From: Treponemataceae bacterium
GTDB taxonomy: Bacteria; Spirochaetota; Spirochaetia; Treponematales; Rectinemataceae
Assembly (NCBI GenBank): GCA_963667725.2
Contig: CAXXHO010000003.1
Location: 2,048,001-2,112,000 of the forward strand
Length of the DNA: 64,000 bases
Reading direction: 5' to 3'
A program made the position numbers and the translations under genes. Shown piece by piece: positions 2,567 through 9,975 of this stretch. Every line of letters starts with the position of its first letter. Position 1 is the first letter of the stretch. The notes beneath the pieces are model-generated. The model was not told the DNA's origin. It did no database searches and saw nothing but the letters and a program-made list of their open reading frames with translations.

Positions 2567-2599
2567 AAAAAAGGCCCCGCGGAATTCCACGGGGCCTTT
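2567..2599 (-). terminator. Intrinsic terminator closing the alpha operon
   Basis: Minus strand AAAGGCCCCGTGGAATTCCGCGGGGCC-TTTTTT. Confidence 0.85.
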
Positions 2600-2617
2600 C
2601 GACATAGTATGTTTAGC

Positions 2618-2788
2618 TTATTTCTTGTTGGCGAGGGTTGCTTTGCAGGTTTTGCAGATCTTGGTCTTCTTGCCTTCGATTTCCTGCTCGTAGAGAACCT
2701 TTACGGATTCCCTCTTGCAGATGGGGCAAGTGCCGCGGCCGTGGGCTACCGTCTCGGCAAGGCCTTTCCCTCTATGCGCTTTGGACAT
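2618..2788 (-). CDS. 56-aa basic zinc-finger-like protein downstream of rplQ (candidate ribosomal protein)
   Basis: MSKAHRGKGLAETVAHGRGTCPICKRESVKVLYEQEIEGKKTKICKTCKATLANKK; SD CAGGAGG at 2794-2800; lies between rplQ and terminator; below ORF-track length cutoff. Confidence 0.85.
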   Translation of the reverse strand: MSKAHRGKGLAETVAHGRGTCPICKRESVKVLYEQEIEGKKTKICKTCKATLANKK

Positions 2789-2804
2789 GTTATCCTCCTG
2801 GACT

Positions 2805-3242
2805 TCAGTCGGCTTTCTTGGCGGCTGTTGCCTTGGCTTTCTTTTCGGCCTTGCGCTTTTCGCGTTCCGCCTTCTTGTCGTCCTCTTTCCTGTCTACCAG
2901 CTCGAGGATCACCATATCGGCGCCGTCGTTGGCGCGAGCACCAATCCTGAGGATCCTGGTGTAGCCGCCGGCCCTATCCTTGAAACGGGGACCGATGTCG
3001 GTGAAAAGCTTGGCGAGAATCGCCTCATCGGTGATCTTGCGGCCGATGATCCTGCGATTGTGGACCGAGTCTTCCTTTGCCCTGGTGATCATCTTTTCGG
3101 CGAGACGGCGGGTCTCGATAGCCTTGGCACGGGTGGTCTCGATGCGCTCGTGCTTGAAGAGGACCGTCGCCATATTCCTGAGAAGGGCTTTTCGGTGGGC
3201 CGATACCCTGTTCAGTTTGTTAAACCCGATTTTATGCTTCAT
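2805..3242 (-). CDS. rplQ: 50S ribosomal protein L17
   Basis: [23 protein letters not shown]…GGYTRI motif; alpha operon position. Confidence 0.97.
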
Positions 3243-4287
3243 CAGTCTCTTCCTTCTTCATGCTGAGTTTTAGATAGTTTCTCAGGGGCGTGTAATCCGT
3301 CATGCCCAGGCTAAGATTCCATTCGCCGAGTTTCGCCTTGATCTCCAGGAGGGATTTCTTGCCGAAATTCCGGGTTTTGGTGATTTCTTCCTCAGTCTTC
3401 CTTGTCAGATCGCCAATGGTCTTGATATTGGCGTTCTTGAGGCAATTGGAGGATCTCACGGAGAGCTCCAGTTCCTCGACGGGGGTGTTGAGAATCTGCC
3501 GCACCCTTTCTTCTATCTCATCGTTCTGCTCGTCGCCCGAAGCTTCATCCTCATCGAAATTGATGAAGATCGAGAAATGGTCCTTGGCGATCTTGGCCGC
3601 CTCGCCGAGAGCGTCCTCGGGGCGGGTAGTGCCGTCGGTCCAGATCTCCAGGTTCAGTTTATCGTAGTCCGAGCGCTGACCGACCCTGGTGGGTTCGATC
3701 GAATACTTCACCTTGGTTACCGGTGTAAAAATCGCGTCCATCGGAATGGTGCCCACGATTTCTATATACCGTTCGTTGACTTCGGCGGGCACGTAGCCCC
3801 TTCCCAAGTCAACCTGGATTTCTATATCGAGGTGGACATCCTTATCCAGGGTCGCGATCTTGATCTCTGGATTCAATACTTCAATCGGTTTGTCGGCCGA
3901 GAAGAAAGATCCGCGGATCTCCTCGATGCCCTGTACCTCGTAGAGGAAAGTGCCCTGTTCCTGGTCGTTGGGCAGGCGCACTCTCAGCTGCTTGAGGCTG
4001 TTCAGGAACTCTATAGTGTCTTCCACCACGCCAGGGATGGTCTCGAATTCGCTGGTGACGATATGCTGGGCACCCTCGTCATCGTAACGCACAATCCTGA
4101 CCGCGGTGATCGCGTAGCCCTGGATGGACGAAAGCAGAATGCGGCGCAGGGTGTTTCCAACCGTTGTTCCATATCCAGGCTCGAAAGGATAGGCGATGAA
4201 CTTTCCGTACGACGGCCCTGATTCGCTTTGCTCGTAGGTAATGCCCTTCGGCCTCTTGAAACCCTTGAGAAGGTTCTTCCGCGCCAT
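3232..4287 (-). CDS. rpoA: RNA polymerase alpha subunit
   Basis: [17 protein letters not shown]; alpha-[24 protein letters not shown]. Confidence 0.98.
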
Positions 4288-5740: not shown

Positions 5741-5854
5741 TCAGCCTTGCTTCTGTTTGTGCTTCGGGTTTTCGCAAACGATCCTGACAATGCCATTCCT
5801 GCGAATGACCTTGCACTTGTCGCATATTTTCTTGACGCTCGTCCTGACCTTCAT
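5741..5854 (-). CDS. rpmJ: 50S ribosomal protein L36 (Zn-binding form)
   Basis: Manual translation [37 protein letters not shown]; not in ORF track. Confidence 0.97.
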
Positions 5855-5919
5855 AGGTTCCCCTTATACGCTCGCGCAAAGCGCGGACACGCAATTAAAT
5901 ACCATATTCCAAAAAAATT

Positions 5920-7242
5920 CTACAGGTTCCTGGCCTTGATATGGCCTTTTCGGACCAGCCCATCATGGTGATGCATCTTGAGCAGGCCTTCCACCTGGGA
6001 CATGGTGTCGAGATCGACGCCCACCAGGATCAGAAGCGAGGTACCTCCGAGAAGGTATGCCAGCTCGCTCGGGAACTTGAACAGCTGCTGGACCAGGCTC
6101 GGTATCAAGGCGATGAGCGCGAGATACAGCGAACCGGGCAGGATTATCCTGTTCAGTATCCTGGAAAGATACTCTTCCATCTTCTCGCTTCTGATGCCGG
6201 GAATGGAGCCGCCATTCTCGCGGATGTTCTTGGAGATTTCCTGGGGATTCAGCGAAACCTGCGTGTAGAAGTAAGCGAAGAAGATGATCAGCACAACGTA
6301 GAGGAGGTTGTACCAGAATCCGCTTGGCCTGAGCCAATAGGAGAAGTCCCTGAGCCACTTGGCCTGCACACCGAAACTCTGGGCGATCTGCAGGGGGAAT
6401 GTAAGAAGGCTCGACGCGAAAATTACTGGAATGACGCCAGACGGGTTGATTTTGAAGGGGATGTAGGTGTTCTGCGCACCGTACATCTTTCGTCCCACGA
6501 CACGTTTGGCGTAATTGACCGGAATCTTTCTCTGTCCCTGCTGTTCAAGAACAACGAGGGCCACGATGCCTACGAACATGATGAGGACGACGATTGCGTA
6601 GACCGCGTTGAGCTCACCGGCCTGGATCTTCTTTATGAGCTCGAAGCTGGCGTTAGGAAGCCTTGCGACGATGCCCGCGAAGATCAGGATCGAGATACCG
6701 TTGCCGATACCGCGCTTGGTGATCTGCTCGCCCATCCACACCAGGAACATCGTTCCCGTAGTCACCGTCAGAATAGCGATCAGCGTATAGGCCAGTCTGT
6801 TGGACATCACGATGGCGTCCGGTATTCTGTCGGCGTATACCGTACTGGAATAGCCTTGGATCGCGCACACCACGAGGGTGCCGATCTTGGTCCAGCGCGC
6901 TATTTTCTTGCGGCCGCCGTCTTCCTCGGCGATGTTCTTCATCTTCGGGAAGACGATGAGAAGGAGCTGAATGATAATCTGCGTACTGATATAGGGCATG
7001 ACTCCCATCATGAAGAGGGAGAAGTTCTTGAAAGCGCCGCCCGAGAAAAAGTCCAGATAATCAGTAATTCCGCTCGATCCTCCGGCCTGGCTGGCGAAGT
7101 AGGACTGAAGCGCGCTGGCATTGATGCCCGGAATGGGCAGGTAAGCGCCGAGTCGAAACACGAACAGCCAGAAAAGTGTGAATAGTATCCTATCCTTGAG
7201 TTCTTTTATCCGGAAAATGTCTGTAAGCGGGTTCCCTGCCAT
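5920..7242 (-). CDS. secY: Preprotein translocase subunit SecY
   Basis: GVMPYISTQII, GIGNGISILIF, IPGIR, GGTSLLI motifs. Confidence 0.98.
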   Translation of the reverse strand: MAGNPLTDIFRIKELKDRILFTLFWLFVFRLGAYLPIPGINASALQSYFASQAGGSSGITDYLDFFSGGAFKNFSLFMMGVMPYISTQIIIQLLLIVFPKMKNIAEEDGGRKKIARWTKIGTLVVCAIQGYSSTVYADRIPDAIVMSNRLAYTLIAILTVTTGTMFLVWMGEQITKRGIGNGISILIFAGIVARLPNASFELIKKIQAGELNAVYAIVVLIMFVGIVALVVLEQQGQRKIPVNYAKRVVGRKMYGAQNTYIPFKINPSGVIPVIFASSLLTFPLQIAQSFGVQAKWLRDFSYWLRPSGFWYNLLYVVLIIFFAYFYTQVSLNPQEISKNIRENGGSIPGIRSEKMEEYLSRILNRIILPGSLYLALIALIPSLVQQLFKFPSELAYLLGGTSLLILVGVDLDTMSQVEGLLKMHHHDGLVRKGHIKARNL

Positions 7243-9789: not shown

Positions 9790-9975
9790 CTACCAGCTCG
9801 ACTTCGTCACGCCCGGAATCTTGCCTTCGGAAGCAAGCTTCCTGAAGCAAATTCGGCACATGTCGAATTTTCTCATATAACCCCTCGCCCTTCCGCAGAT
9901 GTTGCAGCGTCGAACTAAACGGGTCATGTACTTCGGCTTTTTTTCAGCCTTAAGAATCATCGCCTTACGAGCCAT
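9790..9975 (-). CDS. rpsN: 30S ribosomal protein S14 type Z
   Basis: 61 aa, RCNICGR…MCRICFR…IPGVTKSSW. Confidence 0.97.

Follow-up and report, generated by a model that had tools for sequence, protein, structure and literature searches.

Small, basic ribosomal proteins of patchy distribution, such as bS22, bL37 and Thx, were annotated only after ribosome structures had been solved (PMC10618245; for Thx, PMC3353972). For comparison, bS22 is described as a short helix of roughly 30 aa with 61% Lys/Arg, and bL38 of Borrelia is BB0162, seen as chain Ai of PDB 8FMW (PMC10618245). Loss of zinc-binding cysteines is documented for the ribosomal proteins S4, S14, S18, L28, L31, L32, L33 and L36 (PMC5912738), and zinc-free counterparts are treated in PMC3353972 as well. 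While bS22, bL37 and Thx are proven ribosome components, the 56-aa protein described here, encoded after rplQ in the 64,000-nt stretch of spirochaete DNA that we analysed (the window), is a candidate.

This protein resembles bL38 in several respects: bL38 is likewise 55–56 aa long, basic, overlooked by annotation and widespread in Spirochaetia, and it has cysteine-rich and cysteine-poor forms. However, bL38 represents a different family, lies at another locus in this genome and is present in Borrelia, where the window's family was not found. The likeness to bS22 is smaller, since bS22 is a single helix of about 60% Lys/Arg, whereas Lys/Arg amount to 25% of the window's protein, which also contains four cysteines and a predicted hairpin; identity with bS22 was rejected because composition and predicted hairpin do not fit its description.

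The gene following rplQ and its family

The 56-aa ORF is read on the minus strand from 2788 to 2618, and the plus-strand reading of 2618..2788 is unrelated sequence. Three signals named by the first-pass annotation (a 16-nt spacing after rplQ, a CAGGAGG Shine-Dalgarno sequence and a terminator behind the ORF) were all borne out by sequence and folding. The gap between the rplQ stop and the start of the ORF is exactly 16 nt, CAGGAGG pairs with CCTCCT at the 3' end of the genome's own 16S rRNA, and the hairpin at 2600-2569 folds with -27.4 kcal/mol (z -5.85), a stability reached by 0 of 200 shuffles. An Rfam search around the gene returned a chance mir-889 match on the neighbouring hairpin only. 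Pfam and NCBIfam matches confirm the identity of rplQ, and in the taxonomic order of this genome the gene shares its operon with rpsM-rpsK-rpsD-rpoA-rplQ.

Table 1 Coordinates of the gene and its operon context in the window.
Feature	Position	Strand	Basis and remarks
TP0214-family (PF27208) CDS, 56 aa	2618..2788	minus	ORF list, translation, models, alignment
Shine-Dalgarno CAGGAGG	2794..2800	minus	5 nt 5' of ATG; complementary to own 16S 3' end
Intrinsic-terminator-like hairpin (14 pairs) with U-run	2569..2600	minus	folding; predicted operon end
rplQ (bL17)	2805..3242	minus	directly upstream, 16-nt gap; Pfam/NCBIfam
rpoA-like ORF (RNA polymerase alpha)	3232..4287	minus	named from sequence and position; overlaps rplQ start; same alpha operon

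RNA-library contigs of relatives from 4 metatranscriptomes (of 23 runs listed) cover both the ORF and rplQ, and the junction between the two is spanned by single contigs in X3 and X6. The lack of cover below 2584 is a weak hint of the operon end, as the sequences belong to relatives, and neither a single transcript nor its end can be demonstrated with assembled contigs. Codon use of the gene lies within the ribosomal-protein range, a score that 5.1% of background pieces also reach.

A single-sequence search gave 329 homologues and a profile search 2,876. Variation by codon position (0.16, 0.10, 0.42) is concentrated at third positions. Since pN was lower than pS in 80 of 80 pairs (mean 0.17 versus 0.65), coding status is secure: the ORF is a real gene under purifying selection and not a chance frame. 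Mean identity over six genomes of the order is 66%, compared to 59 for bL17, 66 for RpoA, 68 for SecY and 59–86 for ribosomal proteins, a rate of change that matches ribosomal proteins but equally RpoA and SecY.

Pfam and NCBIfam scans of the 56-aa protein gave no family above the cut-off, and the scanned Pfam copy, which appears older than the PF27208 model, held no row for it. PF27208 is nevertheless precomputed on all 120 listed homologues (71–93% identical), and the Atlas match is to PF27208, 'TP_0214 zinc finger-like domain' (0.98, 223/256 features). The orthologue in genome G129, 57% identical and following rplQ after a 23-nt gap, is letter for letter the Tp0214 sequence (WP_010881662.1) printed in the PMC9200625 supplement. 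The 56-aa protein thus is the orthologue of Treponema pallidum Tp0214, which is annotated in that species as a hypothetical protein. Because PF27208 is catalogued and T. pallidum annotates Tp0214, the gene, earlier called unannotated, was missing only from the supplied ORF track. In the openly accessible literature on TP0214/PF27208 and on Treponema ribosomes, no ribosomal or other role was assigned to the family. The two orthologues share family and place after rplQ, whereas the window's protein keeps four cysteines and Tp0214 only the first, with a tail that is 9 residues longer.

Many Treponema orthologues (L015-L017, L021-L039, P0170-P0186) carry Ala/Glu/Pro-rich C-terminal tails of 10–80 residues, and bL17 is often extended too in these genomes. 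Longer forms amounted to 22 matches; among the eight that were read, five had Ala/Glu/Pro-rich tails, one had an upstream start call and two looked like chimeras on contigs of less than 700 bases, so that no informative fusion emerged. An apparent fusion to bL17 at two loci (L101, L103; gap -171) was rejected as an artefact of N gaps.

Two further features of the window were noted. On the plus strand, an ORF at 71-2428 encodes a fumarate/urocanate reductase-like flavoprotein of at least 785 aa with two FMN-binding domains and a FAD-binding-2 domain; it converges on the alpha operon and has its own hairpin at about 2464-2505, between A- and T-runs. At 5744-7242 on the minus strand, rpmJ directly follows secY, and no adk, map or infA ORF lies in between.

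Range in the Spirochaetia and separation from bL38

The search across Spirochaetota proposed by the first-pass annotation found homologues widely, with rplQ adjacency throughout the genome's own order. Among 30 relatives 29 carry the gene, the sole miss being a 76% complete genome. A 45-row profile detected it in 58/58 genomes of the same order and in 14/29 other genomes of the class; in other classes 3 of 313 genomes matched, one of them strongly (G086, E 1.7e-12), and the matches in G078 and G085 (E 3e-4 and 6e-4) were taken as chance. The single-sequence search also found the gene in G105, which belongs to another class.

In an even sample of class Spirochaetia, 99 of 121 genomes had one strong copy each and in 22 the gene was not found. 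These searches did not find it in the Borrelia-like family f8 (0/11 and 0/5 genomes), in f60, f11 and f93, in 3/4 listed f92-type genomes and in a few others. A broader 59-row profile gave only noise (E>0.6) on five non-carriers, in which no diverged copy or remnant was seen after rplQ either. On a 23S tree of 29 genomes, non-carriers occupy at least four separate positions, so that the gene appears to go back to the ancestor of the class and to have been lost repeatedly.

Linkage to rplQ follows the order. The gene lay directly downstream of rplQ in 37/39 loci, the two misses coming from another order, and in 80/80 named loci (the best 80 of 588), which came from spirochaetes or from records lacking a classification, with the exception of one short contig filed under another phylum. 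In a 50-locus set, six same-order loci had rplQ upstream and the other 44 had no rplQ within 1.5–2 kb. Because the link is gone outside the order, the operon position characterises this order, which alone has either acquired or retained it. Elsewhere the gene usually has a strong Shine-Dalgarno sequence and often its own terminator-like hairpin. No ribosomal protein was present among 76 flanking ORFs at 40 such loci; recurring neighbours were a nucleoside phosphorylase-family gene (7) and an M48 peptidase (8), 12 ORFs had no family, and in two genomes of one family the gene follows rho.

Some loci deserve a separate remark. L065, a contig of 3,138 bases assigned in its record to Candidatus Shapirobacteria, carries the gene (79% identical) after rplQ and is probably a mis-binned spirochaete contig. 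L085 and L086 of Rectinema subterraneum, on two contigs of one assembly, are of equal identity and both have rplQ upstream, reflecting either duplication or assembly redundancy. A complementarity with the long Borrelia uL30 was considered and rejected, as long frames occur only in f8 and possibly f92, and the uL30 frames of the non-carriers G354, G402, G522, G459, G467, G487, G529 and G509 measure 60–73 aa. In f92 (G501, G518, G484), open frames of 93–277 aa surround uL30, possibly an N-terminal extension like that of Borrelia. A uL30 match is absent in two of three f73 genomes (G456, G480), both 92–95% complete single contigs.

The suggested kinship with Borrelia bL38 did not hold. A BB0162 orthologue from G444 matched chain 8fmw_Ai (E 3e-24) and found relatives in 115/121 genomes of the class, including a separate bL38 in the window's own genome (G000:C3:852253-852417, minus strand; 46% identical, E 1.1e-9). 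Alignment of the window family with bL38 by hhalign gave 0.4% against the orthologue and 1.2% profile against profile, and 8fmw_Ai was found by the bL38 profile (2e-22) and not by the window-family profiles. With a bL38 of its own elsewhere in the genome, profiles that do not align and no family member found in 11 Borrelia-like genomes, identity with bL38 was rejected. Fold searches on the models did not list bL38, which binds at 23S helix 95 and uL6, although such an absence would not by itself exclude a shared fold.

As an observation on bL38 itself, the protein of this genome (L232:751-918) and of many other Spirochaetia (L233-L248) carries CxC...CxxC, and that of Borrelia and several other lineages SRWGG and one cysteine. 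To judge from these motifs, spirochaete bL38 resembles a zinc ribbon that occurs both with and without its zinc ligands, a point that the accessible part of PMC10618245 does not mention.

Predicted fold and cysteine-less variants

The earlier description of a Lys/Arg-rich protein with CPIC…CKTC was accurate: Lys and Arg make up 25% of the residues, and the cysteines are arranged as CxxC-x20-CxxC. With a pI of 9.8 and a net charge of about +8.6, the protein is laid out as a basic N-terminal tail (1-19), a CxxC knuckle (21-24), a predicted beta-hairpin (about 29-45) and a second CxxC with a predicted helix (45-55). M1, K3, R6, G7, R18, C21, K30 and K46 are invariant in 59 diverse rows, and H5, P22, Y33 and E34 nearly so. 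All four cysteines occur in 80/80 loci and 51/59 rows, and they are predicted to bind one zinc that stabilises the knuckle-hairpin-helix core.

Structure prediction, also proposed earlier, was run and gave a treble-clef-like model with weak matches only. Two AlphaFold models (pLDDT 80.5 and 79.4, pTM about 0.5) show the order knuckle, hairpin, CxxC at the helix start, with the hairpin spanning about 29-45 and the helix 46-55. Foldseek found no match to the model at E<=0.001, and VIA-align over 48,161 chains reached best Z scores of 3.3 and 3.4, which are weak, with FYVE, a nuclease and Lsr2 in the lead. Most of the matches are treble clefs (FYVE, RING, B-box, GATA, HNH-type nucleases, thymidine kinase and ribosomal chains). 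The Borrelia bL28 chain 8fn2_Z was among the ribosomal ones (Z 3.1, rmsd 2.5, 38 aligned). A treble-clef zinc finger is accordingly the predicted fold class, and the modelled resemblance would support that class only and shows no function. Of the 'Zn-ribbon' comparison drawn by the first-pass annotation, the zinc-finger-like character is retained by the model, and the ribbon gives way to a predicted treble clef. PDB sequence searches returned only short CxxC matches (best E 0.057, 0.026 and 0.14).

The knuckle-hairpin-helix core is predicted to be shared with bL28, uS14, eL24 and eS26, to which structural matches are weak (Z up to 3.1). In contrast to these treble-clef ribosomal proteins, the window's protein has a conserved 19-residue tail before the first knuckle. 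The nearest named Atlas look-alikes are uS14 clusters (0.86), a lead only, and sequence likeness to bL28 is not significant (1.1% against the genome's own bL28). The genome has a bL28 gene of its own, and uS14 (window 9793-9975) and bL36, named from sequence and position, lie in the window. None of bL28, uS14, bL33 and bL36 gave a Pfam or NCBIfam row at E<=1, and none appeared among the 25 families shown for 59 members.

Eight of the 59 rows lack three of the cysteines and have C-T/S-S-G/A at the four ligand positions, following the pattern C-P-x-T ... S-K-x-G; cysteine-less bL28 shows a similar C-x-x-T/S ... S-x-x-A/G. A protein tree of all columns grouped the cysteine-less rows together (100/95). 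In a comparison that left out the knuckle columns, all of the 14 rows closest to the T. pallidum form were four-cysteine, and because of this the loss in the T. pallidum form looks separate, which suggests convergence. Given the grouping in the full-column tree, the cysteines may have been lost once or several times. Cysteine state agreed with that of bL28 in 13/14 genomes, bL28 lacking its zinc cysteines in 4/5 genomes with the cysteine-less form and in 0/9 with the four-cysteine form, an agreement that rests on two related families and from which T. pallidum deviates; G086 had no bL28 match. The N-terminal hairpin of bL28, zinc-binding or not, contains a Gly/Lys-rich insertion in several Spirochaetia families (L260, L261, L262, L254), which is shared with Borrelia and absent from this order.

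A candidate accessory ribosomal protein and its alternatives

Tp0214 protein was detected in three proteome studies, at differing abundance. It tops the NSAF ranking in Table 4 of PMC5015957, in the company of many small ribosomal proteins, and it is described as not highly abundant in the own data of PMC10600179. In PMC11077495 it is present in 3/3 in-vitro samples (ranks 284, 357, 464) at intensities near those of bL29 (148, 440, 148) and bL33 (absent, 575, 305), and below bL29 in two of the three. The supplements of PMC12687308, as far as accessible, had no Tp0214 match. At the transcript level, Tp0214 was 2.4-fold higher in rabbits together with rpsS, rpsO and rpmC, while other ribosomal genes were down (PMC8525777). 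In T. denticola, TDE0793, which we placed in the family by gene order beside rplQ (TDE0792) and not by sequence, moves with rplQ in one table (PMC3914990). Such co-expression with ribosomal genes is expected of any operon member. Finally, Tp0214 ranked 14/68 as a predicted antimicrobial peptide, with 7/8 AMP predictors positive (PMC9200625 supplement).

Taken with the above, we consider the protein to be, with a probability of roughly 0.6, an accessory (dispensable), spirochaete-specific ribosomal protein. The ribosomal role proposed by the first-pass annotation thereby gains circumstantial support from the position after rplQ, conservation, composition, codon use, the detection of Tp0214, the model and the cysteine-less variants. 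Counting against it are that most families lack the operon linkage, that the gene has repeatedly been lost, that abundance data disagree and that rRNA covariation is absent: no column of 23S (29 sequences) or 16S (21) separates carriers beyond chance, as 142/300 and 134/300 shuffles, respectively, reached the observed separation. Searches of PDB sequences and of the literature returned no ribosome structure or ribosome proteomics of a carrier containing the family.

The same operon, conservation and basic-surface evidence would also suit a factor for assembly or translation that associates transiently with rRNA or pre-ribosomes and is not in the mature 70S, in the way that the treble-clef protein Rlp24 is the assembly counterpart of eL24. 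Middling LFQ ranks in PMC11077495, the statement 'not highly abundant' in PMC10600179, and repeated gene loss across the class all agree with such a factor, as do the Foldseek rows below significance, which include a chain of the size of eL24 and others from nucleolar pre-60S. In contrast, the strong Shine-Dalgarno sequence, ribosomal-protein-like codon use and top NSAF value (PMC5015957) fit stoichiometric supply, and it is among structural ribosomal proteins that variants without cysteines have been documented best. On balance, we regard this explanation as unlikely.

Small zinc fingers acting on RNA polymerase, such as DksA/TraR and RbpA, offer another analogy, and a polymerase-associated or transcription factor co-expressed with rpoA could account for the shared operon, for the copies behind rho and for some JGI automatic names mentioning Spt4/RPABC4, which are unspecific CxxC labels. 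However, no Pfam or NCBIfam match to DksA/TraR or other transcription factors was obtained, the long basic tail and a charge of about +9 suit burial in nucleic acid, and the immediate neighbour is rplQ, the rpoA link being lost wherever the rplQ link is lost, which makes this reading improbable. A nucleoid-associated or general RNA-binding protein that borrows a strong operon promoter appears slightly more improbable still: it would be small, basic and abundant, as in one study, unlinked from ribosomal genes as in most families, and an Lsr2 dimerisation domain came up in both fold searches (Z 2.5-3.0), but that match is at noise level (5% identity), and a single defined pocket for binding is suggested by the N-terminal motif, which is sequence-specific and unchanged throughout the class. 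An antimicrobial peptide or zinc store is very improbable, since small cationic proteins in general score in AMP predictors such as those positive for Tp0214, the gene is single-copy and slowly evolving across free-living and host-associated lineages, and zinc storage would not be the core role because cysteine-less forms are kept.

Returning to the accessory ribosomal protein, its zinc-stabilised treble clef would sit on the subunit surface, and the invariant basic N-terminal tail would thread into an rRNA pocket as an anchor. K3, R6, R18, K30 and K46 together with H5 would contact rRNA, with the acidic hairpin tip facing solvent. About one copy per ribosome would be made, in this order by co-transcription with rpsM-rpsK-rpsD-rpoA-rplQ. 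If the protein is accessory like bL38, bS22 and Thx, several lineages would therefore have lost the gene, and others would have kept the fold without zinc. By a little over even odds, we favour the broader view that PF27208 represents a ribosomal protein that has yet to be named and goes back to the ancestor of Spirochaetia, the ninth in bacteria with zinc-binding and zinc-free forms, which sits on the ribosomes of Treponema and most Spirochaetia and is missing in Borrelia.

The family was already catalogued and its place in the operon can be read from any Treponema genome, which makes the surprise moderate. What is new is that a separate orthologue excludes bL38, that the family ranges across the class with repeated losses, that its link to the operon is limited to one order, and that variants without the cysteines exist. 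New ribosomal proteins are seldom discovered, and hardly ever by means other than cryo-EM. If our reading is true, the family escaped notice in the one spirochaete ribosome solved so far because it is missing from Borrelia, and the Borrelia structure would not be representative of spirochaete ribosomes generally. It would further give a function to a conserved and repeatedly detected 'hypothetical' Treponema protein, including that of the syphilis agent, and would add a lineage-specific ribosome feature in a group that includes pathogens against which drugs acting on the ribosome are used.
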